Below, in pieces: positions 407 to 53,431 of a stretch of 64,000 nucleotides of DNA. The first letter of the stretch is position 1, and every line of letters begins with the position of its first letter. A program made the translations under genes and the position numbers. Below the pieces are notes generated by a model. It was not told the DNA's origin and did no database searches. It saw only the letters and a program-made list of their open reading frames with translations. The stretch comes from an uncultured Actinomycetes bacterium (GTDB lineage Bacteria > Actinomycetota > Actinomycetes > Streptosporangiales > Streptosporangiaceae), in NCBI GenBank assembly GCA_963770375.1, contig CAVYPM010000008.1, forward strand, positions 93,999-157,998, in the 5' to 3' direction.

Positions 407-1489
407 GTGCCTTCCTACGGGGGTCCCGTGCCTGACGCGAGCGACGGCCGAGACGAGCGCCGCCGTGCCGTGGTGGCGGCTATGGCCCCGGGCACCGCGC
501 TGCGCGACGGGCTGGAGCGGATCCTGCGGGCCAGCACCGGGGCGCTGATCGTCCTCGGCTACGACGACGCAGTCGCCGGGATCTGCTCCGGCGGTTTCCG
601 GCTCGACGTCCCGTTCTCCGCCACCAGGCTCCGCGAGCTGGCCAAGATGGACGGCGCGATCATCCTGGACGCCGCCGCGGACACGATCGTCCTCGCCGCG
701 GTGCACCTGATGCCCGACCCGGCGCTGCCCACCGACGAGTCGGGGACCCGGCACCGGACCGCCGAGCGGGTCGCCCGCCAGACCGGCCACCCCGTCGTCG
801 CGGTCAGCAAGTCGATGCGCACGATCGGCCTGTACCTGGACGGGACCCGCCACGTCCTGGAGGACTCGGTCGCCGTGCTGACCCACGCCAACCAGGCCCT
901 GGGCACACTGGAGCGCTACCGGATCCGGCTGGATCAGCTGTCCGGCTCGCTGACCGCGCTGGAGATCGAGAACCTGGTCACGGTCCGCGACGTGGCCGCA
1001 GCCGCCCAGCGGCTGGAGATGGTCCGCCGGATCGCCGCGGAGATCGAGGGCTACCAGAACGAGCTGGGCACCGGCGGCCGCCAGCTCGCCCTGCAGCTCG
1101 ACGAGCTGGTCGCCGGCACGGCCGACGAGCGCGAGCTGCTCATCCGCGACTACGCGCCGGCCGTGGACGCGCTGGCCGGGCTCGCCCGGCTGTCCCCGGA
1201 CGAGCTGCTCGACGTGGCCACGGTGGCGGCGGCCCTCGGTTTCGGCCCGCCCGGCACGCTGGACGACGCGGTCAGCCCGCACGGCTACCGGCTGCTGGCC
1301 CGGATCCCCCGGCTGCCCAGGGACGCCGCCGAGCGCATCGCCGCCTGCTTCTGCGGCCTGCAGAAGCTGCTCGCCGCCGGGGTCGAGGAACTCCAGCAGG
1401 TCAGCGGCATCAGCCCGGCGCACGCCAGGATGGCCAGGGAAGGCCTGTCCCGCCTCGCCGAGTCGGCCATCCTCGACCGCTTCGGCTGA
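407..1489 (+). CDS. disA: DNA integrity scanning protein DisA (diadenylate cyclase, c-di-AMP synthase)
   Basis: 360 aa. APGTALRDGLERILRASTGALIVLG...DGAIILD...DESGTRHRTAERVARQTGHPVVAVS aligns along its full length with M. tuberculosis DisA (DAC domain plus C-terminal HhH). GTG start at 407; an alternative ATG lies ~25 codons in. Confidence 0.85.
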   Translation: MPSYGGPVPDASDGRDERRRAVVAAMAPGTALRDGLERILRASTGALIVLGYDDAVAGICSGGFRLDVPFSATRLRELAKMDGAIILDAAADTIVLAAVHLMPDPALPTDESGTRHRTAERVARQTGHPVVAVSKSMRTIGLYLDGTRHVLEDSVAVLTHANQALGTLERYRIRLDQLSGSLTALEIENLVTVRDVAAAAQRLEMVRRIAAEIEGYQNELGTGGRQLALQLDELVAGTADERELLIRDYAPAVDALAGLARLSPDELLDVATVAAALGFGPPGTLDDAVSPHGYRLLARIPRLPRDAAERIAACFCGLQKLLAAGVEELQQVSGISPAHARMAREGLSRLAESAILDRFG

Positions 1490-5907: not shown

Positions 5908-6517
5908 GGGTCCAGCCCTTCCGCTACAGCCAGCTTATTAAGGTTTGCCAAACATATACCAGGACCGTTGCGTTTGACAATTGCGACGGCGATGATTGTG
6001 CTAGCTAGTTGCCCCGAACAGGCGAATGACGGCATTCCGGAAGGCCCACGTAACTCTCCGTAATCAGCGCCGCTTAGTGCCCCACAATGCTGATGCACGG
6101 CTGCGATGCAAGGCTGACTAGCGGCTACTGGCGAGGCGCGGAACCGCGCTCAGTGGTTTCCGCATGCCCTTCCTTGGGAGTTTCGCCAGCACTGCCTGTG
6201 ACAGTGCCATCGATTGCAGTATCGCCGATCCCGGCGGCGCCGCGATTCGGCTCGGCCGCGTCGTCCTCGTCGCCGCCGCGGCGCGAGCCCATCTCGTGGC
6301 GCAGGAACGCGCCCACCGCGACCAGCACCGCGACGCAGATCACGGCCGGCGGGATCAGTGCCGCCAGGTCTGCGTTCACGGCCCGCCTCCCGTCTGCGAC
6401 TCACTGAATACCGGCTGGCCGCGGGCCTGGCGCCGGGCAACTGCGGCTACCGGCTCGCACTGGCATTGTCACTCATCGCAGTGGCGGCCGCGGCACCGGG
6501 TCCGGCCTGGCCGGCCG

Positions 6518-9500
6518 ATGCGGGCGCCACTGACAGCACGCCGTGGCACTATCGGACCGCCCCCTCCGCGCGCCGCCGTCCCAGGAAGCAGGCCCTGTTC
6601 GTTGTTCCGTGCCGACCTGCACATCCACTCCCGGTTCTCCCGTGCGTGCAGTAAGAACTGCGACCTCGAGCATCTCGCCTGGTGGGCCCGGCGCAAAGGA
6701 ATCACAGTGGTCGGGACCGGGGATTTCACCCACCCGGCGTGGACCGAGGAACTCGCCGATTCCCTAATTCCCGCCGAGCCAGGCCTTTTCCGGCTGCGCG
6801 GCCCACTCGAAGATCAGCTGCGCCGGACCTCGCCGCCGAGCTGCACCGGTGAGGTCCGATTCATGCTGTCGTCGGAGATCTCCACGATCTACCGGCGCGG
6901 CGATCGGACCAGGAAAGTTCACCATCTGCTCTACGCACCGGACTTCGCCGCGGCAGGCCGGATCACCGCTGCGCTATCGAAGATCGGCAATCTGGCGTCC
7001 GACGGCCGGCCGATCCTTGGGCTCGACTCGCGCGATCTGCTGGAGATCGTTCTGGATAGCGGCCCGGGCAGCTATCTTGTCCCGGCGCACGTTTGGACGC
7101 CCTGGTTCGCGGTCCTTGGCTCCAAATCCGGCTTCGATCTGGTCGCGGACTGCTACGGCGATCTTGCCAGCGAGATATTCGCGATCGAGACCGGCCTGTC
7201 GTCGGACCCGGCGATGAACTGGCGCTGCTCAGTGCTGGATGGCTACCGGCTGGTGAGCAACTCCGATGCGCATTCCCCGCCGATGCTGGGGCGCGAGGCC
7301 ACTACGTTCGGTACAGCGCTTGATTACTTCGCGATGGCCGATGGACTGCGCACCGGCAACGGCCTGATTGGCACCATCGAGTTCTTTCCCGAAGAGGGCA
7401 AGTACCACCTGGATGGGCACCGGAAGTGCGGTGTACGGCTGGAGCCCGGCCAGACCAGGAAACAGGGCGGGGACTGCCCGCGGTGCGGGCGGCCGCTGAC
7501 CGTCGGCGTGCTGAACCGGGTGACCGAGCTGGCCGACCGGCCCGAGGGCTACCGGCCGGACGGCGCGCCGGAGGCCGTCAACCTGGTCTCGCTGCCGCAG
7601 ATCGTCGGCGAGGTGCTGGCTGCCGGGCCGCAGAGCAAGAAGGTCACCACGGAGGTCACCCGGCTGGTCGCGGCGCTCGGCCCGGAGCTCGACCTGCTGA
7701 CCGTGGTGCCGCCCGGCGAGCTGAGCCGGGTGGCCGGCAGCACCGTGGCCGAGGCCATCGCCCGGCTGCGGCGCGGCGAGGTGCAGCGGACCGGCGGCTT
7801 CGACGGCGAGTACGGCACGGTCCGGCTGTTCGGGCCCGGCGAGCTGACCGCGGCGGGGGCTCTTTTCGACGTTCCCGCGACCAGGAGCGCCCCGCCCGGC
7901 CAGGACGGCCAGGACGGCCAGATCCCGGAGACGGATCCGGGCCACGGGGCCAGCGGGCCGGATCCGGACGGCCGGCGCCGGGCCACGGGCACCGGCCCGC
8001 CCGCCGGCCCCCGCACGGGCCAGGAAACGGCACTCGACCCCGATCAGCTCGCCGCGGTCCAGGCGGCCAGCCCGCTGATGATCATCGCGGGGCCCGGTAC
8101 CGGCAAGACCCGCACGCTGGCGTACCGGATCGCCAGGCAGATCGCTGACGGGCTCCCGGCGCAGCGCTGCCTGGCGGTGACGTTCACCCGGCGGGCGGCC
8201 GGCGAACTTCGCGCCCGTCTGGACAGCCTTGTCCCGGGCTCCGCGGGACAACCATGCGTATCCAATTTTCATGGGCTAGGGCTGCAGCTGCTGCGTGAGT
8301 ATCCGGAGCGAGCGGGGCTGACACCAGAATTTTCCGTGGCTGACGAGGCCGCGGTAGCGGAGGTGGCCGCCGGGCTGGCCGGGTCGGCGCGGGCCGGGCG
8401 GCGGCTGCTGGCCGAGGCGGCCACGGACCCGGACCGCCGTGCGGAGCTGACGGCCGCACTGCGGGCCAGGGATCTGGTCGACTTCGACGGGCTGATCGAG
8501 CTGGCCGCCGGGCTGCTGCGCGGCGACCCCGGCCTGGCCGCGCGGATGCGCGAGCGCTGGCCGCGGATCAGCGTGGACGAGTACCAGGACATCGACGCGG
8601 CGCAGTACGAGCTGCTGGCCCTGCTGGCCGGGGACGGCACCGGGCTGACCGTGATCGGCGACCCGGACCAGGCCATCTACGGGTTCCGCGGCGCGGACGT
8701 CGGGTTCTTCCTGCGCTTCGGCGAGGACTACCCGGGGGCCACCACCTGCCAGCTGACCAGGAACTACCGGGCCACCGCGGCGATCGTGGCGGGCGCAACG
8801 GCGGTCATCGCCCCGGCCACGCTGGCCCCAGGACGGCTCCTGCACGCGGTCAACGGCGGCGGCGCGCCGATCACCCTCCACGAGGCCGCCGACGAGGCCG
8901 CGGAGGCGGCCTGGATAGCGGCGTCGGTCGACCGGCTGCTCGGCGGGGTGTCGCTGCACTCGATCGACAGCGGGCGGGCCGACGGGCACGCGGTGGATGG
9001 GGTCAGCCTGCGCGACGTGGCCGTGCTGTACCGCACCGACGGCCAGGCGGCCGCGCTCGGCCAGGCGCTGGGACGGGCCGGGCTGCCGTACCAGAAGGGC
9101 TCGCACGACCTTCTGGCCCGCCGGACCGGCGTCGCTGACCTGGTCGCCGAACTGCGCCGCGCCGCCACCGACCCGGCCGCTCCCGCCGACCCGGCCGCTC
9201 CCGCCGGCCCGGCTGATCCGGACGTGGCGGAGCGGCTGCGGGCGGCGGCCCGGCGGCTGACCGCGGGTGCCAGCCCGGGGCGGGCCACGGACCTGCGCTC
9301 GGCGGCCGCGGCGCTGTCGCCGCTGGCCCGCCGGTGCGGCGGCGACCTGACCGCTTTCCTGGCCGAGATCGCTCTCGGCGCCCAGGCCGACGCGCTGGAC
9401 CCGCGGGCCGACGCGGTCACCCTCCTGACCCTGCACGCGGCCAAGGGCCTGGAGTTCGACGTGGTGTTCCTGGCCGGCTGCGAGCGTGGCCTGCTCCCGC

Positions 9501-9745
9501 TGTGGCTCCCCGGCCAGGACCCCACCGCCGAAACCGCTGAGGAGCGGCGCCTGCTGTTCGTCGGGATGACCAGGGCGCGGTCCCGGCTGTACCTGAGCTA
9601 CGCCGCCCAGCGGGCCCGCCGCGGCGCGATCGCCGGGGGCGGCGGCCTGTCACCGTTCCTGGCCGGCATCAGCCCGGACCTCCTGCGCCGCCCGCAGGCC
9701 CCGCGGCCCCGGCGCCCTGACGCACAGCAACTGCGGCTGCTCTAG
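6518..9745 (+). CDS. Fusion protein: COG1379/TIGR00375-type PHP phosphoesterase with Zn-ribbon, joined to a UvrD/REP-family SF1 DNA helicase
   Basis: N-terminal DLHIHSRFS...TGDFTHPAW...CPRCGRPLTVGVLNRVTELAD (PHP plus Zn ribbon). C-terminal helicase motifs are complete: I AGPGTGKT, II DEYQD, III GDPDQAIYGFRGA, IV LTRNYR, V/VI TLHAAKGLEFDVVFL / FVGMTRARSRLYLS. The ORF opens at 6164, but the first ~120 codons are Arg-rich antisense overlap; the likely start is ATG 6518 or TTG 6602 (AGGAAG 12 nt upstream). Confidence 0.75.
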   Translation: MRAPLTARRGTIGPPPPRAAVPGSRPCSLFRADLHIHSRFSRACSKNCDLEHLAWWARRKGITVVGTGDFTHPAWTEELADSLIPAEPGLFRLRGPLEDQLRRTSPPSCTGEVRFMLSSEISTIYRRGDRTRKVHHLLYAPDFAAAGRITAALSKIGNLASDGRPILGLDSRDLLEIVLDSGPGSYLVPAHVWTPWFAVLGSKSGFDLVADCYGDLASEIFAIETGLSSDPAMNWRCSVLDGYRLVSNSDAHSPPMLGREATTFGTALDYFAMADGLRTGNGLIGTIEFFPEEGKYHLDGHRKCGVRLEPGQTRKQGGDCPRCGRPLTVGVLNRVTELADRPEGYRPDGAPEAVNLVSLPQIVGEVLAAGPQSKKVTTEVTRLVAALGPELDLLTVVPPGELSRVAGSTVAEAIARLRRGEVQRTGGFDGEYGTVRLFGPGELTAAGALFDVPATRSAPPGQDGQDGQIPETDPGHGASGPDPDGRRRATGTGPPAGPRTGQETALDPDQLAAVQAASPLMIIAGPGTGKTRTLAYRIARQIADGLPAQRCLAVTFTRRAAGELRARLDSLVPGSAGQPCVSNFHGLGLQLLREYPERAGLTPEFSVADEAAVAEVAAGLAGSARAGRRLLAEAATDPDRRAELTAALRARDLVDFDGLIELAAGLLRGDPGLAARMRERWPRISVDEYQDIDAAQYELLALLAGDGTGLTVIGDPDQAIYGFRGADVGFFLRFGEDYPGATTCQLTRNYRATAAIVAGATAVIAPATLAPGRLLHAVNGGGAPITLHEAADEAAEAAWIAASVDRLLGGVSLHSIDSGRADGHAVDGVSLRDVAVLYRTDGQAAALGQALGRAGLPYQKGSHDLLARRTGVADLVAELRRAATDPAAPADPAAPAGPADPDVAERLRAAARRLTAGASPGRATDLRSAAAALSPLARRCGGDLTAFLAEIALGAQADALDPRADAVTLLTLHAAKGLEFDVVFLAGCERGLLPLWLPGQDPTAETAEERRLLFVGMTRARSRLYLSYAAQRARRGAIAGGGGLSPFLAGISPDLLRRPQAPRPRRPDAQQLRLL

Positions 9746-10124
9746 CGCCCCGCGCCCGCCCCCGGAGCCCGGCCGGCGGCCCGCCCGGCAACCGCCGGGA
9801 ACGCCTGCCGGCATTGGCCTGCAGGGCCGCTGTGCTGCCCAAATGCACCCCGCCTCAACGCAGTGTCACTAATTAGCTACGCGTTGCTGGAAAGCGCCGC
9901 CGGCCTCACGCTGCGCACATCACGCGCAGATCACACCGGCCACCGCACCCCTCTTGACCTGCGGTGCGGCGGATTTACGACGCGCCGCCGCGAGCTGCAG
10001 AAATAGGCTCCCGTCCCGTCGGTTACGCTCCGCAGCCAGACGCGCCGACGTAAAAATTTCTGTCGTTCTCATTCGCGGTAGGCCTCCGTTCCATTAATCT
10101 CCAACGCTGTTAACCCCTGTTGCC

Positions 10125-10310
10125 GGCTGCCCCCTGAGACAGGCCGGTGACACCCGCCGAGTTCCTGGTGTGTGCTCGCATGCACCGGGGAGCCGGGGAC
10201 CCACCGTTCCCCGGGGTGAATCGGCTGGCTCCGGCCCTGCCCCAGGGCCGTACCAGCCGTAGGGCTCCTCCAGCCCGAACCCGTCAGCTAACCCGGTAGG
10301 CGGCCGAGGA
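10125..10310 (+). promoter_or_regulatory. ydaO/kimA-class c-di-AMP riboswitch in the 5' leader of the NlpC/P60 gene
   Basis: CCGGGGUGAAUCGG (compare GGGGUUAAUC) and CCCGUCAGCUAACCCGGUAGGCGG (compare CCCGACAGCUAACUCCGGAGGC) match the crystallised T. tengcongensis c-di-AMP riboswitch. The element ends at the RBS GGAGGAGAGGAGCAGC just before the start codon. 5' boundary is approximate. Confidence 0.7.
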
Positions 10311-10322
10311 GAGGAGCAGCAC

Positions 10323-11384
10323 GTGGAGCGCTTGCCCATCGGCAGGCAGTTCGCAGGCAGTTCACGGGGGAAACGCACCCGTGCCAGGTTTCACCGGGCA
10401 TGGGCCCGGACCGGTTTGGTCACCGGGACGGTTCTGCTGGCCGGGTTCGCCCTGCCAGCCAGCCTGAGCGTCGGCGCCCAGGCGACCACGGCGTCACCAG
10501 TGCCGCCCAGCATGAAGGCGCTCCTGGCCAAGGCCAACAAGGTGGCCCGCCAGGTCGAGGTGCTCAGCAACCAGTACGACGCGCTGAAGATTCAGCTTCA
10601 GGAAGCCAGGACCGAGGCCACGCTGGCCCGCAAGGCCGCCGAGCGCGACGCCAAGCAGCTGACCCAAGGCCAGCTCGCGGTCGGCCAGATCGCCGCCCAG
10701 GGCTACATGACCGGCAGCTTCGACCCGACCCTGCAGCTGCTGCAGAGCAGCGACCCGCAGGGGTTCGTCAACCGGGTCTCGATCATGCTGCAGCTGCAGC
10801 ACGAGAACGGCGACCGGGTCACCGCCGCGACCACCGCGAAGAACGCCGCCGAGCGCGCCGTGCTGACCGCGCAGCAGGAGGAGGCCAAGGCCACCCGGCT
10901 GTCCGCGGCGATGAAGAAGAAGGTCGCCGAGATCCAGGCCAAAGAGAACGTGCTGAACAGCGCGGCCTACAAGAAGGCCGCGGAGATCTTCCAGCAGACC
11001 GGCTCGTACCCCAACGTGCCGACCCCGGAAGGCAACTCGATCGGGGTCCAGGCGCTGCGCTGGGCGCTCAGCCGCCGCGGTGACGCCTACGTATGGGGCG
11101 CCGCCGGCCCGACCACGTTCGACTGCTCGGGCCTGGTCATGTGGGCCTACGCGCACGTGGGGATCAGCCTGGCGCACCTGACCTTCGACCAGTGGAACGA
11201 GGGCGAGCACGTCCCCAGCGCCCAGGCCCAGCCCGGCGACCTGATCTTCCTCTACGGTCTCGAGCACGTCGGCTTGTACATCGGCAACGGGCTGTTCATC
11301 GATGCGCCGTTCACCGGCACGGTCGTGCGGATCGACCCGGTCCCCTGGGGCTCGGTCGACGGCGTGGTCCGCATCATCGGCTGA
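10323..11384 (+). CDS. Secreted NlpC/P60 peptidoglycan endopeptidase with N-terminal coiled coil (RipA-like)
   Basis: Signal peptide, long coiled-coil segment, and a C-terminal NlpC/P60 core with catalytic Cys (FDCSGLVMWAY) and His (HVGLYIGNG). Confidence 0.8.
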   Translation: MERLPIGRQFAGSSRGKRTRARFHRAWARTGLVTGTVLLAGFALPASLSVGAQATTASPVPPSMKALLAKANKVARQVEVLSNQYDALKIQLQEARTEATLARKAAERDAKQLTQGQLAVGQIAAQGYMTGSFDPTLQLLQSSDPQGFVNRVSIMLQLQHENGDRVTAATTAKNAAERAVLTAQQEEAKATRLSAAMKKKVAEIQAKENVLNSAAYKKAAEIFQQTGSYPNVPTPEGNSIGVQALRWALSRRGDAYVWGAAGPTTFDCSGLVMWAYAHVGISLAHLTFDQWNEGEHVPSAQAQPGDLIFLYGLEHVGLYIGNGLFIDAPFTGTVVRIDPVPWGSVDGVVRIIG

Positions 11385-11410
11385 CCCGCCGCACCCGAAC
11401 GCGCAGTTAC

Positions 11411-11449
11411 GAAACGGCCGCCCCGGGCACCATGCCCGGGGCGGCCGTT
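11411..11449. terminator. Perfect 18-bp hairpin between convergent NlpC/P60 and lysS genes
   Basis: aaacggccgccccgggca cca tgcccggggcggccgttt. Confidence 0.6.
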
Positions 11450-11464
11450 TGCGTGAACTCCCGC

Positions 11465-12991
11465 CTACTCCGGCCGCACCAGCGGGAACAGGATCGTCTC
11501 CCGGATGCTCGACCCGGTCAGCATGATCAGCAGCCGGTCCAGCCCCATGCCCATGCCCCCGGTCGGCGGCATGCCGTACTCCAGCGCCCGCAGGAAGTCC
11601 TCGTCCAGCTGCATCGCCTCGGCGTCGCCGCCCGCGGCGAGCAGCGACTGGGCGGTCAGCCGGGCCCGCTCCTCGTCCGGGTCGACCAGTTCGGTGTACG
11701 CGGTCGCGATCTCGGTCCCGAACGCCACCAGGTCCCACTTCTCGGCCAGCCGCGGGTCGTCCCGGTGCGCCCGGGTCAGCGGCGCCACCTCGACCGGGAA
11801 GTCGCAGTAGAACGTCGGCTCCACGGTCTTGCTCTCCACCAGGTGCTCGTACATCTCCAGCAGCACCTGGCCGCGGTTCCACTTCGGGTCCAGGCCGATC
11901 TCCGCGCGGGCGGCCAGCTTGCGCAGCTCGTCCTCGGTGGTGTCCGGGGTGACCTCCTCGCCGAGCGCGGCGGACACCGAGCCGTGCACGGTACGGAACG
12001 GCCACTCACCGCCGATGTCGTACTCGCCGCCGTCGGCCCGGCGGATGACCGTGCCGCCGAAACCGGCCACCGCGGCCGCCTGGATCAGCTCCCTGGTCAG
12101 CGTCGCCATCGTGGTGTAGTCGCCGTACGCCTGGTACAGCTCGAGCATGGTGAACTCGGGGTTGTGCGTGGCGTCGGCGCCCTCGTTGCGGAAGATCCGG
12201 CCGAGCTCGTAGACCTTCTCGATGCCGCCCACGACCAGCCGCTTGAGGTAGAGCTCCAGCGCGATCCGCAGGTACATGGTCAGGTCGCCGTAGGCGTTGA
12301 TGCGGGTGACGAACGGGCGCGCGTTGGCCCCGCCGTGCAGAACCTGCAGCACCGGGGTCTCGACCTCGAGGAACCCGCGCTCGTGCAGTTCCTCGCGAAT
12401 CGCCCTGGTCACCACGCCGCGCAGCTCGGCCATCTGCCGGGTCTGCGGGTTGACCAGCAGGTCCAGGTAGCGCTGCCGCATCCGGGTGGCCGGGTCGGAC
12501 AGGCCGGCGTGCTTCTCCGGCAGCGGCCGCAGCGCCTTGGCGGTGATCAGGAACGAGTCGGCCAGCACCGACAGCTCGCCCCGCCGGGAGGTGATGACCT
12601 CGCCCTCGACCCCGATGTGGTCGCCCAGGTCGACGTCCCGCTTCCAGGCCTCGAGCGCGTCCGCGCCGACCCGGTCCAGCGAGACCATCACCTGCAGGTC
12701 GCCGCTGCCGTCCCGGATCGTGGCGAAGCACAGCTTGCCGCCGGTGCGGTACAGCATGACCCGGCCGGCCACGGCGACCCGGTCGCCGGTGGCGGTGTCC
12801 GGGGCCAGGTCCTGGTAGCGCTCGCGAAGGTCCGCGATGACCGCGGTGCGCTCGAAGCCGGGCGGGTACGGGTCCTTCCCGGCCGCGCGCAGCGCGGCGG
12901 CCTTGGCCCGCCGCACCCGCATCTGCTCGGCAAGACCGCTGGCCGGGCCGGTTTCCCCGCCCGGAGCCGGCGCTGTTTCATCCGCTGTCAT
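11465..12991 (-). CDS. lysS: Lysyl-tRNA synthetase (class II)
   Basis: OB-fold anticodon-binding domain plus class II core with motifs 1-3 (FLEVETPVLQ, GIEKVYELGRIFRNEG, GGMGMGLDRLLI). ATG 12991 (MTADETAPA) is chosen because the ORF start at 13066 would overlap coaX. Confidence 0.9.
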   Translation of the reverse strand: MTADETAPAPGGETGPASGLAEQMRVRRAKAAALRAAGKDPYPPGFERTAVIADLRERYQDLAPDTATGDRVAVAGRVMLYRTGGKLCFATIRDGSGDLQVMVSLDRVGADALEAWKRDVDLGDHIGVEGEVITSRRGELSVLADSFLITAKALRPLPEKHAGLSDPATRMRQRYLDLLVNPQTRQMAELRGVVTRAIREELHERGFLEVETPVLQVLHGGANARPFVTRINAYGDLTMYLRIALELYLKRLVVGGIEKVYELGRIFRNEGADATHNPEFTMLELYQAYGDYTTMATLTRELIQAAAVAGFGGTVIRRADGGEYDIGGEWPFRTVHGSVSAALGEEVTPDTTEDELRKLAARAEIGLDPKWNRGQVLLEMYEHLVESKTVEPTFYCDFPVEVAPLTRAHRDDPRLAEKWDLVAFGTEIATAYTELVDPDEERARLTAQSLLAAGGDAEAMQLDEDFLRALEYGMPPTGGMGMGLDRLLIMLTGSSIRETILFPLVRPE

Positions 12992-17087: not shown

Positions 17088-18067
17088 GCCCAGCCGCCCA
17101 GGCCCGCCGGGACGGCGCCTTCCGGTCCGGGGCCGGTCTGTGCCGCGGCGGCCTGCCGCCAGCGGGCCGCGACCCGGACCGCGTCGGCGCTGGCCGCGGC
17201 GGCATGCACGCGCACGCACCAGGCCCCGGCGGCCGCCGCCAGCGCGGCCACCGCGAGCGAGGCCTCGTCCCGGCCCTCGGCGGGCCGCGGCTGCCCGTCC
17301 GGGTCCGCCAGCAGCTGGCCGAGGAAGCTCTTCCTGGACGCGCCCACCAGCAGCGGGAACCCGGGACCGGCCCGGTTCAGCCGGGAAACCCGGGGCAGGT
17401 CGGCGAGCAGCGCCCAGTTGTGCCCGGCCCGCTTGGCGAACCCGATCCCGGGGTCGATCACGATCCGGGCCGGGTCGATGCCCGCGCCGGCCGCCGCGTC
17501 GGCCTGCTGCGCCAGTTCGGCGCAGACCTCGGCGACCACGTCGGTGTAGCGGGCCAGGTCGCCCATGACCGCGCTGGGCCCGCGCCAGTGCATGATCACG
17601 TACCCGGCCGACGCGGCCCGCACCACCGCGTGCATACCCGGATCGGCCAGGCCGCCGCTGACGTCGTTGACCATGACCGCGCCGGCCGCCAGCGCGGCCG
17701 CGGCCACCTCCGCGCGGGTGGTGTCGATGCTGACCGTCAGCCCGGCCGAGACCAGCGCGGTGACGACCGGGCCAACCCGGCGCAGTTCCTCGGCCCCGGT
17801 GACCCGGCCCGCGCCGGGCCGGGTGGACTCCCCGCCGACGTCGATGATGTCGGCGCCCTCGGCGGCCAGCGCAAGCCCGTGCGCTACCGCGGCGTCGGGG
17901 TCCAGCCACCGGCCGCCGTCAGAGAACGAGTCCGGGGTGACGTTGACCACGCCCATGACCAGGCAGCGATCCAGCGCGGGGCGCCCGCCCAGGCCGGGCG
18001 GGCCAGGCCAGGCGGGCGGTGTGCCCTCGTGGCCCGTGGTGCCGGTGGTGCCTGTCATAGAGGCCAA
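17084..18067 (-). CDS. folP: Dihydropteroate synthase
   Basis: VMGVVNVTPDSFSDGG...DVGGESTRPGA...DPGIGFAK aligns with M. tuberculosis FolP1. The true start may be ~30 codons inside the ORF. Confidence 0.85.
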   Translation of the reverse strand: MASMTGTTGTTGHEGTPPAWPGPPGLGGRPALDRCLVMGVVNVTPDSFSDGGRWLDPDAAVAHGLALAAEGADIIDVGGESTRPGAGRVTGAEELRRVGPVVTALVSAGLTVSIDTTRAEVAAAALAAGAVMVNDVSGGLADPGMHAVVRAASAGYVIMHWRGPSAVMGDLARYTDVVAEVCAELAQQADAAAGAGIDPARIVIDPGIGFAKRAGHNWALLADLPRVSRLNRAGPGFPLLVGASRKSFLGQLLADPDGQPRPAEGRDEASLAVAALAAAAGAWCVRVHAAAASADAVRVAARWRQAAAAQTGPGPEGAVPAGLGGWA

Positions 18068-20226
18068 TCTATGGCAGTGCTTGCTGGCTCGCGCAGGGCC
18101 GCTGGAGAGGCGCTACCTTCCCGGCGCACCCGCGGCGCTCCGTCGTCGCGCGGTGATCGTCGGGAAACAGCGCGGCGGCACGGCTCGTCTGCCGGCACGT
18201 CAGGCCCGCCCCTGCAGGATGGTCCGGCGCTCGGTTCCATCTCGGCGGAGATCTCGGCGACACCCCGGCGGGCCTCGGCGTCCCCGGACGCGGCGGCCGG
18301 GCGGGCGGCCATCATCGTGCGCAGCACCCGGCCGCGGCGCAGCCGTCCCAGGCCCGCCTTGCGGGTCAGCCGCCGGACCTCGATCCGCGGCCAGACCAGG
18401 AACGCCTCGGCCTCCAGTGCCGCCAGCCCGATCCGCGGCGTGTAGCCGGTGCCGGGGAAGACCATGAACCGGGGGATCCAGTCCGGCTGGAACTTCGCGT
18501 TGAACTTGTACAGCGACTCGATCTGGAACCAGCGGGACATGAACAGCAGGATTCCCCGCCAGGCGCGCAGCACCGGGCCGGCCCCGATCCGCTCGCCGCG
18601 CTCCAGCGCGGACCGGAACGCCGCGAAGTTCAGCGAGATCCGCCGGACGCCGAGGTCCGGGGCGTTCTTGATGGCCTCCACGATGAGGAAGTCGTTCACG
18701 CCGGCGGCCGCGGACTTGTCCCGCCGCATCAGGTCGAGCGAGAGGCCGTCCTTGCCCCACGGCACGAAGTGCTGGATGGCCCGCAGCTCGCCGTTCTCCA
18801 TCGCGGTGGCCACCACGCAGCGCTCGTCGCCGACCCCGCCGATCCGGCCCAGGGCCATCGAGAAGCCCCGCTCGGTCGAGCCGCCCCGCCACGAGTCGGC
18901 CAGCTCGGCCAGCGCCCGCAGCTCCTCCCGGCTCAGGTCGCCGGTGCGGCGGAACTCGGCGGTGTAGCCGTTCCTGGCCACCCGGGTGACCATCTGCCGG
19001 ACGTTGCGCATGGCCCGGCCCTCCAGCGAGAAACCGTCCACGTTCACGATGGCCTCGTCGCCGAGCTCGAGTGCGGCCAGCCCGCCCTCGCGGCACCACA
19101 CCTCGGCGCCCAGCTCGCCGCAGCCGACCACGGCGGGCACCCAGGCGTGCCGGGCCGCCTCGTCCAGGAACGCGTGGATGGCCCCGGGCCACGCCTCCGG
19201 GTCGCCGATCGGGTCCCCGGCGGCCAGCATCACCCCGGACAGCACCCGGTAGCCGATGCAGGATTTGCCGGTCGGCGACCAGATCGCGCTCTTGTCGTGG
19301 CGCAGCGCGAAGTAGCCGAGCGAGTCCTGCGCGCCGTGCCGGTCAAGCAGCTTCCTGATCTTGTCCGCGTCGGCCGGGCTGTGGCGGCCGGCCGGCGCGG
19401 CCGGGCGCAGGAACAGGTAGGCCGCCACCACCAGCGTGAAGATGCCCAGCGCGCTGGTCAGGAAGTTGAACAGGTCACCGTGGCCCTCCGGGCCGAACTG
19501 CACCGGGCCGGAGATGCCGACCAGGCCCCAGATCACCGACTGACCCCGCTCCAGCAGCGAGTAGTCCTCCTCCAGGCCGCGGCTCAGCATGATGAAGGTC
19601 AGGCCGATGACCAGGTCGGCGAGGATCAGCCAGCCCAGCGCGGTCAGCGCCCGCCACTGGCTGCGCGGGTCGCCGACCGCGTAGAACTCACGGCGGAACA
19701 CCAGCAGTACGCAGAGCAGGACGAAGGTCGCCGCGGCCTGGCCGACCCGCGGGAAGTGGGTGGCGTGCAGCACCGTGCTGCACGCCAGCAGCACGACCGT
19801 GGCCTGGAAGGCCCGCCGCTTGCGCCGCCGCAGCCCGTCCGACAGCAGAACCAGCAGCAGGCCGGTGATGACGTCGGCGGTCCTGGTCAGGTTGACCAGC
19901 GTGCCGGGGGCCAGGTAGCCGACCCGGTGCAGCCGGTAGTGCGCGTAGAAGCCGGGGTTGGCCCCCTCGATGATCGTGACCAGGCCGATCAGCAGCAGGA
20001 TCCACCGCGCGGCCGCGGGCACCCAGCGGCGCTGGCGCCGCCGCTCCGCGGGCCGCCCGCCGCCGGGCTTGCCGTCCGCGCCGCCCCCCTTCGCGGCCTT
20101 GTCCTTGGGCGCCGGCTGGGCAGGCGAAGGCGCCCGCTTGCCGCCCTGGGCCGTATCACCAGGGGCAGCCTGACGGGCTTCACCGCGCTCAGTCATCTCA
20201 GACATTCTGGTCGGGCCCTCGATCAC
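18055..20226 (-). CDS. MprF/LysX-like membrane protein: multi-TM flippase-like domain plus DUF2156 aminoacyl-phosphatidylglycerol synthase domain, with no fused LysRS
   Basis: About eight TM helices followed by GFSMALGRIGG...DFLIVEAIKNAPDLGVRRISLNFAAFRS...FQIESLYKFNAKFQPDWIPRFMVFPG (DUF2156). The ORF ends at the folP start, so no tRNA-synthetase domain follows. Confidence 0.7.
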   Translation of the reverse strand: MIEGPTRMSEMTERGEARQAAPGDTAQGGKRAPSPAQPAPKDKAAKGGGADGKPGGGRPAERRRQRRWVPAAARWILLLIGLVTIIEGANPGFYAHYRLHRVGYLAPGTLVNLTRTADVITGLLLVLLSDGLRRRKRRAFQATVVLLACSTVLHATHFPRVGQAAATFVLLCVLLVFRREFYAVGDPRSQWRALTALGWLILADLVIGLTFIMLSRGLEEDYSLLERGQSVIWGLVGISGPVQFGPEGHGDLFNFLTSALGIFTLVVAAYLFLRPAAPAGRHSPADADKIRKLLDRHGAQDSLGYFALRHDKSAIWSPTGKSCIGYRVLSGVMLAAGDPIGDPEAWPGAIHAFLDEAARHAWVPAVVGCGELGAEVWCREGGLAALELGDEAIVNVDGFSLEGRAMRNVRQMVTRVARNGYTAEFRRTGDLSREELRALAELADSWRGGSTERGFSMALGRIGGVGDERCVVATAMENGELRAIQHFVPWGKDGLSLDLMRRDKSAAAGVNDFLIVEAIKNAPDLGVRRISLNFAAFRSALERGERIGAGPVLRAWRGILLFMSRWFQIESLYKFNAKFQPDWIPRFMVFPGTGYTPRIGLAALEAEAFLVWPRIEVRRLTRKAGLGRLRRGRVLRTMMAARPAAASGDAEARRGVAEISAEMEPSAGPSCRGGPDVPADEPCRRAVSRRSPRDDGAPRVRREGSASPAALREPASTAIDWPL

Positions 20227-20339
20227 GGGGGATCAGCGTAGTCATCAGCAGAATTACCCGCGGGCAAACCTGGCAATGCCCACGCAATGGTGGCCGGCTA
20301 CCCGCCAGGGGCCCATGGCCGATTCGGCGCGGCCCGGCG

Positions 20340-39635: not shown

Positions 39636-39712
39636 CGGGGTGTGGCGCAGCTTGGCAGCGCGCTTCGTTCGGGACGAAGAGGCCGCCGGTTCAAATCCGG
39701 CCACCCCGACCA
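39636..39712 (+). tRNA. tRNA-Pro (anticodon CGG), CCA encoded
   Basis: Acceptor CGGGGTG/CACCCCG, D-arm GGCGCAGCTTGGCAGCGCGC, anticodon stem-loop CTTCG-TTCGGGA-CGAAG, T-arm GCCGGTTCAAATCCGGC, then ACCA. Confidence 0.85.
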
Positions 39713-47747: not shown

Positions 47748-47789
47748 TCGCGGCGAATCAGGAACTGGCCTGGTTGCGCTCTGGGCTGG

Positions 47790-48044
47790 CTACAGGAACT
47801 GGCCGGTGGAGTGCTCCGGGTCGCCGTTCCAGGCGACGCCGATGACCTGCGCGGGGTCGAGGACCGTCCAGCCGGACTCCCGCTCGATCCGGAGCAGCCC
47901 GTCCGGCCGGACCGCCACGGCGGTGAGCTTGTTGCTCTCGGTGGAGGCGAAGCCGACCTGGCCGATTCTGCTGACCACCATGAACACCGTGCCCGACTTG
48001 CCGATCAGTGGCGTGAGCAGATCGCAGATCGTCTCACCGGTCAT
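47790..48044 (-). CDS. Small hypothetical protein (~84 aa)
   Basis: MTGETICDLLTPLIGKSGTVFMVVSRIGQVGFASTESNKLTAVAVRPDGLLRIERESGWTVLDPAQVIGVAWNGDPEHSTGQFL. GGAGG RBS. Non-Arg-rich composition unlike the overlapping high-GC frames. Confidence 0.35.
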   Translation of the reverse strand: MTGETICDLLTPLIGKSGTVFMVVSRIGQVGFASTESNKLTAVAVRPDGLLRIERESGWTVLDPAQVIGVAWNGDPEHSTGQFL

Positions 48045-48200
48045 TCGCATCGCCTCCCGAGAGCTAACGGGAACCATGCCCAGGGCCGGGTGGCCGGAAG
48101 CACGGTAGCGCCGGAAAGCCCGACCGGGCGGGCCGGCCGCGGCTGGGGAGGGGTCCCCGGAGCGGTTTTGCTTTCCGGCCGCCCGAAATACAGTTGGCGC

Positions 48201-51200
48201 GTGGAAGCTGGGAAGCCCGGGTCCGGGGGTTCGGCACCGCCGCTCGTCGTGGGTTACGAGGGGATCGAGCGTGTCCTGACCCCCGGTCCGGCATACCGGA
48301 TCGGGCGGGACCCCAAGGGTGACATCCCGATCACCGACGACCGGGTGTCCTGGCGCCATGCGGAACTACGGGTCGAAGGCAGCCGCTGGGTCCTGGCCGA
48401 CGTCGGCAGCACCAACGGCACCTACGTGGCCGACCAGCGGATGGACCGCGTCGAGATCATCGGGATCTTCCTGGCCCGGCTCGGCGACCCCTCCGACGGG
48501 ACGCTGCTGACCTGCGTCGTCACCGGCCAGGAACCGGGCGCCGCGCCGGGCGGCCGGCCCGCCACTCAGGTGGCCGACCTGGGCGGCAGTGCACTCGGCC
48601 GCAACCTGGGCCCGGCCACAGTCGGCCCCGGCGGCATCCCGTCCGGGCCCGACACCGTTGGGCCGGACGGCGTCCCGGCCACCCGCGGCCCCGCTGCCGC
48701 GCCGGCCAGCCCCACGGCCGCCCCGGGCAGCCCAGCCGCGGACCCGGGCGGCACGGCGGTCGTTCAGCCGGTCCCCGCGCCGTCGGCCGGTCCCGGTGCG
48801 GAGCCTCCCACCGGCTGGCCGCCTATCGTCCCGCCGGAGCCGTCCGCCGAGCCGCCGTCACCGGCCCGGCCGGCCAGGGACGCCACGATGGCGGCCGGGC
48901 CGACCCCGGAGCCGCCTGCGTCCCCGCCGCCCGCCCGGCCAGCCAGGGAGGCGACCATGGCCGCGGGCTGGGCCGCGCCGGAGCCGTCCGCGCCCTCCCC
49001 GGTCCCGCCCCCGCCTGCCGCCACGCCTGGCCCACCGCCGGCCGCTGGACTCCTCCCGCCTGGCCCGGCACAGCCGGCTGCGCCCGCGCCTGGCGCCGTC
49101 TCGCCGGAGGCTGCGCAGCCTGATCCGCAGGTCCTCCCGCCCGGTGCGGCCACCATGGGCCCGGCGGCCATCCCGGCCGCGCCGCTCACCCTCGGGCCGG
49201 CCCCGGCCCCGCCGCCGCCGACGCCGGGCGGGACGCCCGAGCCGGCCGTCCCGGAGATCGTGCGGATCGGGCGGGCGCCGGAGAGCGACATCGTGATCCC
49301 GGACACCAGCGCCTCGCGGAACCACGCCGAGCTGCACCGCGACGGGGCCGACCTGCGGATCGTGGACCTGGGCAGCTCCAACGGCACGTACGTGAACGGG
49401 CAGCGGGTCAAGGAAACACGGCTGGCCGAGGGCGACATCGTCGGCATCGGCTCGAGCGTGTTCCGGCTGGCCGGGCAGCACCTCCTGAAGATCCACGACG
49501 CGGCGGCAGCCATCGAGGCCACGTCGGCCGCCGCCGCAGTTTCCGTACTCCATGAAGATGGCGCGCCACTCGCACCATCGCCTGCCGAGCCAGCCGGGCC
49601 CGCCCCCGCGCCGCCTGCGGCAGCACCGGCCCCGCCCGTGCCCCCGCTGCCCGGCGCACCCGGCCCGGCTGCAGCCGGCGTGCCCGCGGCGGCGCCGGCG
49701 GGCGCGGGACAGCCGGGCCCGTGGGCCGTCCCGCCGAAGGCCAACGCCGACGGCACGCTGGAGATCGGCTACGCGATCCGCTGGCTGGTGCCCAAGGGCG
49801 AGCGGTTCGCGAACTTCGGCATCCTCAACGACAACGACAGCCAGCTGGAGTACTACCGCAAGTTCGGGCACATCTACGCGGTCGGCGTGCCCACCAAGAA
49901 GTGGCGTCTGGTGGTGGTCTCCGACCCGGATCTGCTCGACGAGGTGGCCGGCCACGAGGAGCAGTTCGGCAAGCGGGCCGAGGAGATCAACTTCTTCGCC
50001 CAGCTGAGCAACTCCCGCGGCGGCGGTATCTCGGTGATCGGCGACAGCGCGCGCACCGAGATGATCCGCCGGGTCATGCTGCCCTGGTACTCGCCCCAGC
50101 ACCAGCGCACCCAGCTGGAGCTGATGAAGGAGCAGGCCCGCCGCCTGGTCGCGAACTGGGCCGCGCTGCCCGACGAGCAGCCGGTGGACGCCCGGGTCTG
50201 GATGGAGCGTTACGCGCTCGAGGTGTCCGGCCGCGGCGCCTGCAACTACAACTTCGGCCTGCTCGACGGCAACCCCAGCCCGCCCCCGTTCGCCGAGGCG
50301 GTGCTGGAGAGCACCAAGGAGAGCATCCGCCGGGTCGCCGACCCGTTCCCGGACAGCAGGCTGGCCGGCCGGGCCAACCGCGCCCGGCGCGACCGCTACC
50401 GGCAGTACAACGCCGAGCTGGTGCGGACGGCCGACGCGCTGGTCCGGGCGCGCAAGTACACCGCCCCGCTGGGCCCGCAGAACGACCTGCTCAGCCGCCT
50501 GGTGAGCACGCCGGACCCGGAGACCGGCGAGTACCTCGACCGGGAGACGGTCCGCGACCAGGTGCTCATGCACCTGTCGAACGGCTTCAACGGGCCGTCG
50601 ATCACCGGGGCCTGGCTGGCGTCTGTCCTGGCCAGCTACCCCGAGGTCGAGGAGAAGATGCTGGCCGAGATCGACGGGATCACCGGCGGCGACCCGGACT
50701 ACGACCTGAAGTACGACGACCTGCTGTCGCTGACGTACATCACCCAGGTGATCAAGGAGACCCTGCGCGTCTACCCGCCGCAGCCGGTCACGATCCGGCG
50801 CAGCCTTAAGGACGGGATGCTCGGGCGCTACCGGGTCCGCAAGGGCGACATCATCCTGGTCGGCTCGCTCGCCGCGCAGCGTGATCCGCGCTACTGGGGG
50901 CCCGAGCCGGACGCGTTCGACCCGTCGCGGTTCGAAGCGGACAGGGTTGTGGACCGGCCGAGGCACGCGTTCATCCCGTTCTCGGTCGGGCGGCGGCAGT
51001 GCATGGCGCAGGAAGTGTCGTTCATGATGCTCCGCGTCGTGCTGTTCGAGATCTTCAAGCACTACCGGCTGCGGCCCGCGCCGGGCACCGCGGTCGTGAA
51101 GAACACCCTGGTGACCACCAAGCCCGCCGCGGTCCCGGTGGTCCGCATCCCGCGGGAGCGAGCGGCCTGGGCGGACGGGGCCGCGGCCGCTGGTGCCCCG

Positions 51201-51270
51201 GCGGCCGCTCCAGCGCCGTCGGCCGCGGGTGCGCCTGCGCCGGCCATGCCGTCCGGCGCCGCGCCGCGCC
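48201..51270 (+). CDS. Multidomain protein: FHA domain - Pro-rich linker - FHA domain - CYP102 (P450 BM3)-like heme domain; continues into the reductase domain after an apparent -1 frameshift
   Basis: FHA1: YRIGRDPKGDIPITDDRVSWRHAELRV...GSTNGTYV. FHA2: VRIGRAPESDIVIPDTSASRNHAELHR...GSSNGTYVNG. P450: DPETGEYLD, ETLRVYPP (ExxR), FIPFSVGRRQCMAQ (heme Cys loop), and overall collinearity with BM3. The I-helix lacks the acid-alcohol pair (NGFNGPS replaces AGHETTS). The start is uncertain (GTG 48201 or 48249). Confidence 0.7.
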
Positions 51271-53431
51271 GTCCTTGGCTGCGGCTGCGGCCGCTGCTGC
51301 GCCGGCCGCTGCGCCCGCGGCGCGTCCCTTGCCGGGCAACGGCGGGCGGCCGTCCTCCGGCGGACGGGACTGGGGCGAGCCCGCCGAGATCCCGGCCACG
51401 AGCGCGTACCGCCATCTGGTCATCGCCTACGGCAGCAACTTCGGTGCGAACAAGGAACTCGCCGAGCAGTTCGCGCAGCGCAGCCGCTTCTACGGCTACA
51501 CCAGCGAAGTGGTCACGCTGAACGAGCTGGCCGCCGCGCCGCCGCGCACCGAGCCGTGGCTGCTGGCCGTCTTGACCTCCACCTACACCTCGAACCCGCC
51601 GTCGAACGCGGCCGCGTTCAAGGAGCTGCTGGAGCGGTCCTTCCCGGGCGCGCCGATGTGGCAGCAATGCCGTTACCTGGTCTGGGGTCTGGGGAACAGC
51701 CAGTGGAACGCGTTCCTCGCCTTCCCCCGCTGGGTGCACGCGCGGCTCGCCGAACTGGGGGCCACGCCGGTCGCTGACTTCGGTTACGGCGACGTCGGCT
51801 CGCCGGCCTGGGAGCGGCTGCACGCCGAGTGGAACAACGGGGTGTGGCCGGTCCTGCTCGGGCTGTCCGGCGCCCGGCGGACCGACTCCGCGGCGGCACG
51901 GATCGCCGCGGAGCAGGCCGCAGTGAGCGCGCTGGTGGGCGGCGACTCGGGCGTCGCGATGCAGCGGTCGCTGATCGGCAGCATCCCGGCCGAGCTGCGT
52001 AACCGGTCGGCTGGCGGATCCTCGTTCATCAGCCGCACGCCGTCCGGGTTGCGGAGCCTGGCGGCGCCGGCCGTCCGGGCGGCTGAGACAGCCCCACCCG
52101 CCCCAGCGGTCCCACCGGCCCCGGCGGGCCAGCCGGTCCAGGCGGGTCAGCCTGCACCCGCGCGTCAGCCTGCGGGTCAGGCGGCTCAGCCGGGCAGCAT
52201 GCTGGTCCCGGTCACGCTCACCAACGCGGTGGACCTCGAGACCGCCGAGGCCCGCGTGCTGGCCGTCCGCGAGCTGCAGGCCGCCGGGTCGCCGAAGCAG
52301 ACCCGGCACCTGGAGCTCAGCCTCCCGGCCGGCTTCACCTACCTGGCCGGCGGGCACGTCGGGATCTGCCCGAAGAACGACCCGCAGCAGGTCGAGAGGC
52401 TCGCCGCGCGGCTCGGCGCCCCGCTGGACGGCATCTTCATGGTCCCCGAGGAGATCGACGCCCGGGCCGTGCCCAGGGGTGTGGTCCTGCAGGTCCGCAA
52501 CGTGCTGACCAGCCTGGTCGACATCGCCGGGCGGCCCAGCGCGGCCCTGCTCGACCTGCTGCTGGAGAAGGTCACCGACCCGTCGGAGTGGACCCGGCTG
52601 GCCGAGTTCAGGGACGTGCTGCAGTGGCCGGACGGACCGCGCTCGGAGCTGCACGACATGATCGACGCGGGCCGCTACGACGCGCTCCAGCTGCTCGCCG
52701 AGTTCCCGTCCTGCTCGCTGAACATCTTCGACTTCCTGCGGGTGGCCCAGCCGCTCCGGCCGCGCTACTACTCGGCCAGCTCGTGCCCGCAGGTCCACGG
52801 CGGCCAGGTCGTGCACCTGACCGTGGGCCACGAGTCCGTGCCGGTTCCCGGCCGGCCGGACCGCGATTTCCGCGGGATGAGCTCGCACTACATGCGCACG
52901 CTCCGCGAGGGCGACGCGGTGAACGTGTTCTTCGACGACGCGGCCGGGTTCCGCCTCCAGGACGACCCGGCGAAGCCGATGATCTTCGTTTCCGCGGGCA
53001 CCGGTTTCGCGCCGATGCGTGCTTTCCTGTGGCAGCGGCAGGCGCTGCGGGACAGCGGTGCCGCGCTGGGCGAGGCGGTCCTGTTCAACGGCATCCGCGA
53101 GCGGGGCGTGGACGACATCTACCGGGACGAGATCGACCAGTTCGCGGCCGACGGGCTGCTCGATGAGGTGCACCTGGTGGCTTCCCGCGAGCAGCCGGGG
53201 ACCCGCGAGCACGTCCAGGACCGCATCCGCGCGCAGGGCGTGCTGATGAACGGGCTGCTGGCGGAGGGTGGATACGTCTACGTCTGCGGCTCGCAGCCAA
53301 TGCGCGACGGGGTCCGTGCGGCGTTCGCCGACGTGCTGACCGAGCACCGGCCGATGCCGCGCCCGGACGCCGTGGCCTACCTCGACGCCCTGGAGGCGGA
53401 CGGGCACTACCGGCCTGACCTGTGGGGTTGA
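51271..53431 (+). CDS. Diflavin NADPH-cytochrome P450 reductase domain (flavodoxin-FMN + FAD/NADPH), almost certainly the C-terminal part of the preceding P450 gene
   Basis: HLVIAYGSNFGANKELAEQFA (FMN), RYYSASSCP (FAD), FVSAGTGFAPMRAF and YVYVCGSQPMRDG (NADPH), C-terminal YRPDLWG as in BM3/CPR. The Ala-rich linker is readable in both frames around 51250-51290, consistent with a 1-nt indel. Confidence 0.75.

Follow-up and report, generated by a model that had tools for sequence, protein, structure and literature searches.

Actinobacterial genes preceded by a ydaO-class riboswitch are almost all related to the cell wall (PMC9960051; PMC10117811). The ydaO riboswitch of Corynebacterium glutamicum nlpC has no terminator; at high c-di-AMP it acts as an OFF switch on a reporter protein with the transcript unchanged, a second reporter placed downstream is unaffected, and the authors proposed a pseudoknot between CUCC and the GGAG of the ribosome-binding site (RBS) (PMC9960051). 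In Streptomyces coelicolor, seven cell-wall hydrolase genes (rpfA and six others) carry ydaO-like riboswitches (Haiser 2009; St-Onge 2015, 2017, as reviewed in PMC10117811), and Streptomyces rpfA is reported to be controlled through transcription (PMC10117811). The Firmicute prototype ydaO/kimA, in contrast to the locus described here, has a terminator as its expression platform (PMC9960051).

The DNA analysed here (the window) is a stretch of 64,000 nucleotides from an uncultured Actinomycetes bacterium of the Streptosporangiaceae. The original prediction placed a c-di-AMP (ydaO-class) riboswitch at 10125–10322, in the leader of a hydrolase gene. A cmscan of the whole window against Rfam gives a match to RF00379 (c-di-AMP, ydaO/yuaA leader) at 10145–10318 on the forward strand (70.5 bits against a gathering threshold of 38, E = 2.5e-14); the alignment spans model positions 1–134 of 134 and is not truncated. 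As this match is far beyond chance, it confirms the observation. The predicted interval does cover the match, but its 5′ limit lies 20 nt too far upstream, inside a separate hairpin. A covariance model specific to the lineage (R1) scores 10145–10318 at 144.7 bits. The element is almost certainly a member of the c-di-AMP riboswitch family: each sequence- and structure-based hallmark of RF00379 that we examined is found in it, and binding of the ligand is predicted. No second ydaO copy or other riboswitch was found when the window was scanned against Rfam at a permissive E-value; besides the riboswitch, the scan returned only a tRNA and two sub-threshold chance matches. The tRNA gene [39636–39709 (+), 64.1 bits] has, by inspection, the anticodon loop UUCGGGA and is thus read as tRNA-Pro(CGG). 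The features of the locus, with disA as the ligand source, are listed below.

407–1489, forward strand: disA, diadenylate cyclase, source of the ligand (DAC, DisA-linker and HHH domains).
10095–10100, forward strand: candidate −10 hexamer TAATCT (TANNNT), with T, A and final T invariant in 11 of 11 aligned orthologous leaders.
10105–10112, forward strand: conserved block CGCTGTTA, almost without change in 11 leaders as well as in L118 and L114, the deletion variants.
10118–10152, forward strand: upstream hairpin ‘P0’, 11 bp, outside the Rfam model (RNAfold, −16.6 kcal/mol).
10145–10318, forward strand: c-di-AMP (ydaO-class) aptamer (full-length RF00379 match).
10155–10158, forward strand: 5′ strand of P1, CGCC, with its partner GGCG at 10299–10302 (Rfam alignment).
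10162–10191, forward strand: P2 hairpin, 13 bp (10162–10174 with 10179–10191), 22 nt longer than the consensus (Rfam alignment, folding).
10192–10197, forward strand: 5′ strand of P3, GCCGGG, with its partner CCCGGU at 10292–10297 (Rfam alignment).
10202–10213 (region 10198–10213), forward strand: small consensus hairpin of 2 bp, degenerate, with one non-canonical pair (Rfam alignment).
10214–10216, forward strand: 5′ strand of the central helix, GGG, with its partner CCC at 10280–10282, then the conserved UGAAU junction (Rfam alignment, pair counts).
10222–10259, forward strand: extended hairpin of the second junction (10222–10228 with 10253–10259; inner stem 10232–10239 with 10243–10250) (Rfam alignment, folding).
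10262–10276, forward strand: P7 hairpin, GGGC/GCCC (10262–10265 with 10273–10276), loop UCCUCCA at 10266–10272 (Rfam alignment).
10306–10316, forward strand: 3′ tail GAGGAGAGGAG, comprising the pseudoknot 3′ strand (GGAG 10308–10311 or GAGGA 10306–10310) and then the Shine–Dalgarno sequence (SD) GAGGAG 10311–10316.
10323–11384, forward strand: secreted coiled-coil plus NlpC/P60 (C40) peptidoglycan endopeptidase, 353 aa, GTG start (PF00877).

Both of the segments that had been singled out as the most conserved parts of the ydaO class are present in the leader, GGGGTGAATC at 10213–10222 and CCCGTCAGCTAACCCGGTAGGC at 10280–10301, together with all of the conserved junction and core strings (CCGAGU..., GGGGA-CCA, GGGGUGAAUC, GUAGGG and CCCGAACCCGUCAGCUAACC). 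The near base-for-base likeness to the crystallised RNA also holds: GGGGTGAATC agrees at 9 of its 10 bases, and the first 14 bases of CCCGTCAGCTAACCCGGTAGGC are the same as in 4QLM, with the remaining differences confined to the 3′ strands of P3 and P1, where pairing is kept. CCCGUCAGCUAACC is the same as in the 4QLM RNA and GGGGUGAAUC is one base off. Like the crystallised riboswitches (PDB-ids: 4QLM, 4QLN and homologues), the window RNA has the consensus helices, the conserved junctions and a pseudoknot linking the loop of P7 to the 3′ tail. It differs from them in its longer hairpins (P2 by 22 nt, the second-junction hairpin by 27 nt) and in its shorter pseudoknot (4–5 bp, compared with 8 bp).

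The helices are supported by comparison with relatives. P1 is paired in 100% of the cells in both sets of relatives (42 and 39) and P3 in 98–99%; none of the 26 modelled pairs is non-standard in the window. Over all helices, 97.9% of the cells are paired in alignments A3 and A5 alike, with eight compensatory pairs in A3 and seven in A5, both alignments having been fitted to the covariance model and thus being biased in its favour. None of 500 shuffles of A3 reached the observed values, and sliding the partners by one column brings pairing down to 52–60% (about 54% for A3). The compensatory changes are mostly located in P2 (its basal pairs) and in the extended hairpin of the second junction, as expected if a real structure surrounds an invariant ligand-binding core. 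The unconstrained minimum free energy (MFE) fold of the leader (−93.5 kcal/mol, against −79.3 kcal/mol for the constrained native nested fold) is without the long-range helices P1 and P3, and in it the SD has the P7 loop and the 5′ leader as its partners; the pseudoknot is outside what ViennaRNA can model. Since the native fold is pseudoknotted, this result was not counted as evidence either way. An MFE fold lacking P1 and P3 is usual for RNAs with this pseudoknotted fold, and every helix is backed by the covariance model as well as by the pair counts from relatives.

Upstream of the aptamer, TAATCT (10095–10100) is a putative −10 promoter element; no sigma-70 consensus promoter was called in 9600–11600. 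The CGCTGTTA block is probably the 5′ end of the transcript. Every close relative has an equivalent of P0, a stable hairpin of different sequence between the CGCTGTTA block and P1, which could serve as a 5′ stabiliser or folding aid. An A/T-rich box with CGTT (10052–10069) is common to the 11 aligned leaders; it is too far from the TANNNT hexamer for a standard −35 element and so may be a regulator site. A similar GTGTCACTAAT string also occurs at about 9866–9876. An antisense open reading frame (10094–10378, 94 aa) was rejected as a gene, as it overlies the conserved structured RNA.

The aptamer lies on the sense strand, in the 5′ leader of the NlpC/P60 gene, and ends 5 nt before the GTG codon. 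This start is conserved as M-E-R among orthologues, and the gene is monocistronic and convergent with lysS. Its product has a long N-terminal region and a C-terminal NlpC/P60 domain (PF00877, peptidase clan CA, family C40; E = 2.4e-23, 82.5 bits against a gathering threshold of 23), in which C268 (of an FDCSG motif) and H315, by analogy the putative catalytic residues, are invariant in 21 homologues. The protein is closer to the RipC/CwlO type of coiled-coil NlpC/P60 proteins than to the RipA type named in the original prediction. RipC (NF038345) is the best NCBIfam match (125.9 bits against a cut-off of 425) and outscores RipA (NF033741), whose 85.4 bits against a cut-off of 625 rule out RipA identity; with both scores below their cut-offs, and that for RipC far below, the protein has a RipC/CwlO-like architecture and is an equivalog of neither RipC nor RipA. 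Among PDB entries, 8idc_E, which is RipC in the Mycobacterium tuberculosis FtsEX–RipC complex, matches best (E = 1.1e-22, two stretches), and the catalytic domains of RipA rank lower. The D,L-endopeptidases M. tuberculosis RipC (Rv2190c) and Bacillus subtilis CwlO share with the window protein a C-terminal NlpC/P60 domain and a long N-terminal helical region, and the JGI annotation calls its relatives CwlO. No ftsEX was found among the open reading frames of the window that were scanned against Pfam, which are a part of the total.

As had been predicted, the aptamer runs into the RBS: P1 ends at 10302, the SD (GAGGAG) occupies 10311–10316, and the GTG at 10323 follows 6 nt after it. The tail after P1 reads GCC GAGGA GAGGA G CAGCAC GUG. 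The gap between P1 and the start codon is only 20 nt and is without a U-tract, and no terminator-like site was found in 9600–11600; the absence of an intrinsic terminator from this region rules out a classical attenuator platform. The 7-nt loop of P7 contains an anti-SD-like CUCC (10268–10271) that is complementary to GGAG at 10308–10311, abutting or overlapping the SD and 1 nt from its GGAG core. Because GAGGA is duplicated in tandem, the loop can also pair with 10311–10315: in an alternative register UCCUC (10266–10270) is complementary to GAGGA at 10306–10310 (−7.5 kcal/mol) or to the duplicate at 10311–10315 (−7.4 kcal/mol), which is the SD itself. In either case the pseudoknot is short (4–5 bp). 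In the crystallised 4QLM RNA the P7 loop is CUCCUUCG and the 3′ tail is CGAAGGAG, and the pseudoknot is as far from P1 as that of the window (sequence: PMC5393176); from this loop and tail it follows that the pseudoknot of the family joins loop to tail and has an SD-like 3′ strand.

In the clade that holds the window, 98% of the pseudoknot cells are paired, but the pairs are invariant and hence uninformative on covariation, for which the evidence is drawn from aptamers further away. Across actinobacterial lineages there are five loop/tail classes, CUCC/GGAG, CCUUCC/GGAAGG, UCUUCC/GGAAGA, UCUUUG(C)/(G)CAAAGA and CUCUC/GAGAG, and each has an SD of the GGAG type that overlaps the tail strand or comes right after it. 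Cognate loop–tail duplexes average −10.2 kcal/mol, compared with −8.6 kcal/mol for non-cognate ones, and none of 10000 permutations is as good, a figure that is inflated by kinship of the sequences. In most relatives outside the window's clade there is a second CUCC between SD and start codon (AGGAGACUCCACGUG; tail GGAGACUCCACGUG in L001, L002, L117 and many others), which could pair with either GGAG copy; the window's clade has CAGCAC there (window 10313–10325). This contrast suggests that the expression platform differs between sister clades.

The window locus shares with C. glutamicum nlpC a ydaO aptamer before an NlpC/P60 gene, the lack of a canonical terminator, a CUCC facing the GGAG of the RBS and a DisA cyclase. 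Unlike the monocistronic window gene, whose product is RipC/CwlO-like with a coiled-coil N-terminus, the C. glutamicum gene (cg2402) is the first of a seven-gene operon. The window adds the duplicated GAGGA, with two pseudoknot registers, and the upstream hairpin. With Streptomyces rpfA it has in common the riboswitch class, its position before a cell-wall lytic enzyme, a DisA-containing host and the lack of a canonical terminator (PMC10117811). In the Streptomyces loci collected here, the aptamers precede NlpC/P60 paralogues and have an equivalent loop/tail pairing, CCUUCC/GGAAGG; they differ from the window in their tails, GGAAGGAG and a UUG start with a CUCC downstream, and in their proteins, whose identity to that of the window is only about 30%. 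These aptamers (for example L046:6242–6418, L038:6634–6808 and L022:7744–7921) lie before another NlpC/P60 paralogue, about 2–3.5 kb upstream of the matched gene, and have long P7 loops with CCUUCC and the tail GGAAGGAGUCGCCUCC(C)UUGG, made up of SD, short spacer, CUCC and UUG start.

In searches of 185,579 species-representative genomes the hydrolase has no close relative, the best being 59% identical (uncultured Actinomycetes, Streptosporangiaceae MAGs), and metagenome relatives are 88–99% identical. A custom covariance model built from 19 leaders, which replaced a strict core-motif regular expression that missed many aptamers, identifies 42 aptamers when run on 80 genome loci and the window, and 43 when run on 55 metagenome loci and the window. 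The aptamer is at the same place, directly before the syntenic orthologue (NlpC/P60 followed by convergent lysS), in 13 genome loci (L001–L004, L006, L008, L009 and L014–L019) and about 40 metagenome loci. Four syntenic orthologues have no aptamer in the leader (L005:1060–1190, L007:9840–9970, L010:7000–7180 and L011:5760–5895); L005 and L007 share the −10-like and CGCTG(T/A)TA-like elements, and their short leaders end in AAGGAAAGGAG and GTG. No aptamer match was found in five metagenome loci with upstream sequence (L107, L113, L115, L116 and L119). From its distribution the riboswitch appears to be a module that members of this hydrolase gene family acquire or lose. L019 (8261–8416 and 9597–9796) and L066 (11166–11371 and 12770–12979) each have a pair of separate ydaO aptamers inside some 1.5 kb, presumably before adjacent hydrolase genes.

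Two metagenome contigs differ by little more than the aptamer. L118 (WNFI01679203.1) and L117 (Ga0209648_10000970) are 99.8–100% identical along some 3.7 kb, save for a deletion of 131 nt in L118 (L118:1290–1430 compared with L117:1296–1423), which takes the 5′ two-thirds of the aptamer. P0, the 5′ strand of P1, P2, the 5′ strand of P3 and part of the second junction are lost in L118; P7, the tail and the SD are kept. A comparable deletion, whose junction differs slightly, occurs in L114 (L114:954–1114), which is 85% identical. The L118 deletion could be a natural sensor-dead variant; an assembly artefact is less likely.

The missing terminator, the pseudoknot abutting the SD, the loop/tail covariation and the pseudoknot of the crystal structures together make a translational OFF switch the most likely mode of action, in which the ligand-locked aptamer would hide or block the SD through its own pseudoknot. 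We assign this reading a probability of about 65%. Abundant c-di-AMP made by DisA would supply two ligand molecules that lock the pseudo-two-fold fold, that is the two three-helix junctions and the pseudoknot between P7 loop and 3′ tail. The 3′ strand of the pseudoknot would then lie beside the SD or, in the alternative register, be the SD itself, so that the RBS would be hidden or sterically blocked. At low c-di-AMP the short pseudoknot would open and the hydrolase would be translated. The direction of regulation is very probably OFF, and control at the level of translation is somewhat better than an even bet. Such a mechanism agrees with that of C. glutamicum nlpC, the one NlpC/P60 case that has been dissected by experiment (PMC9960051). 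With GGAG present twice, the SD-proximal copy could also stay free while the first is paired, and regulation would then be leaky.

As the main alternative, the same riboswitch might act mostly on transcription or on the mRNA, by terminator-independent pausing or termination, or by Rho-dependent termination or decay that follows the loss of translation near the beginning of the reading frame; when translation is blocked, Rho or RNases commonly gain access to the mRNA. Streptomyces rpfA transcripts are up about five-fold in a disA mutant (PMC10117811), and c-di-AMP-dependent premature termination without a canonical terminator has been reported for rpfA in vitro (PMC10117811; discussion in PMC9960051). 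The window is likewise devoid of a canonical terminator, leaving room for such a non-canonical mechanism. However, a 20-nt gap free of any U-tract leaves little between P1 and the start codon, the SD is beside or within a pseudoknot whose pairing co-varies, and for the C. glutamicum NlpC/P60 analogue neither a change in transcript nor polarity on the second reporter was seen (PMC9960051). Action mainly at the transcript level is for these reasons unlikely here, and the translational OFF switch is preferred.

Two further explanations dispense with c-di-AMP control altogether. That the riboswitch is dispensable among orthologues, as the four aptamer-less leaders and the 5′ deletions of L118 and L114 illustrate, might suggest that the aptamer is a non-regulating evolutionary relic and that expression of the hydrolase is set by the promoter only. 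The window copy, however, is full length with all helices intact and scores far above threshold, and at 88–95% protein identity core, loop and tail are invariant and the peripheral stems change with compensation. Such an invariant core with compensated stems indicates purifying selection on the structure and makes a relic very improbable. Recognition of another ligand, for example ATP or a related dinucleotide, is more improbable still. Sensing of ATP was proposed for ydaO (Watson and Fedor 2012, as cited in PMC7266159), but the family has an established picomolar affinity for c-di-AMP and does not recognise AMP directly (PMC7266159), the core of the window RNA matches the consensus almost base for base, and DisA is encoded in the window.

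The gene at 407–1489 is disA, as originally identified; besides the DisA domains, its product matches the NCBIfam equivalog NF010009 (452 bits against a cut-off of 201). The prediction had also stressed that synthase and riboswitch-gated hydrolase are captured together. Both are indeed in the window, 8.8 kb apart from disA to riboswitch, but there is no specific linkage between them. They belong to a conserved housekeeping block of Actinobacteria, made up of disA, an HhH-GPD glycosylase gene, clpC, a UvrD-like helicase gene, the NlpC/P60 gene, convergent lysS, coaX, the gene for an MprF-like lysyl-PG synthase, folE and ftsH; beyond ftsH are genes for a pyrophosphatase, a Crp-like regulator, WhiB and a class A PBP. 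Of about 20 syntenic relatives L009 alone has disA within 10 kb, which rules out the proximity of disA as a conserved linkage. The order disA ... clpC ... lysS–coaX ... folE–ftsH occurs in M. tuberculosis as well, and the closeness of disA is therefore a matter of inherited synteny and not of regulatory pairing.

Other genes of the window have features of their own. The MprF-like protein [18055–20232 (−), about 5 kb from lysS] combines a transmembrane region of the lysyl-tRNA-synthetase type with a C-terminal phosphatidylglycerol lysyltransferase domain. The UvrD/PcrA-like helicase (6164–9745, 1193 aa as listed, true start codon uncertain) has an N-terminal extension that holds a TIGR00375-family region (aa 246–552), an unusual fusion, and its place ahead of the NlpC/P60 gene is conserved in several relatives. 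At 47748–53431 there are two overlapping long open frames with provisional gene boundaries, one containing two FHA domains and then a cytochrome P450, the other flavodoxin, FAD-binding and NAD-binding domains as in CPR reductase; they may form a self-sufficient P450–reductase system with unusual N-terminal FHA domains.

The window riboswitch leaves current understanding unchanged. It is a real but ordinary example of an established arrangement, a c-di-AMP riboswitch before an actinobacterial cell-wall hydrolase, and adds one more well-supported case, from an uncultured soil lineage, to the rule that hydrolases of Actinobacteria are controlled by such riboswitches. The comparative data speak for the view that ydaO riboswitches of Actinobacteria that have no terminator draw the SD into or against the pseudoknot, a view which has so far come from one study of C. 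glutamicum. The natural variants that have lost the aptamer could help to gauge how much control by c-di-AMP matters. We tentatively suggest, at a little under even odds, that the aptamer's own pseudoknot is the whole expression platform and makes, with the duplicated GAGGA (10306–10315), a terminator-free translational switch that is evolutionarily labile. If this is true, the near-isogenic pairs would be ready-made test cases for the environmental role of c-di-AMP control of these hydrolases.
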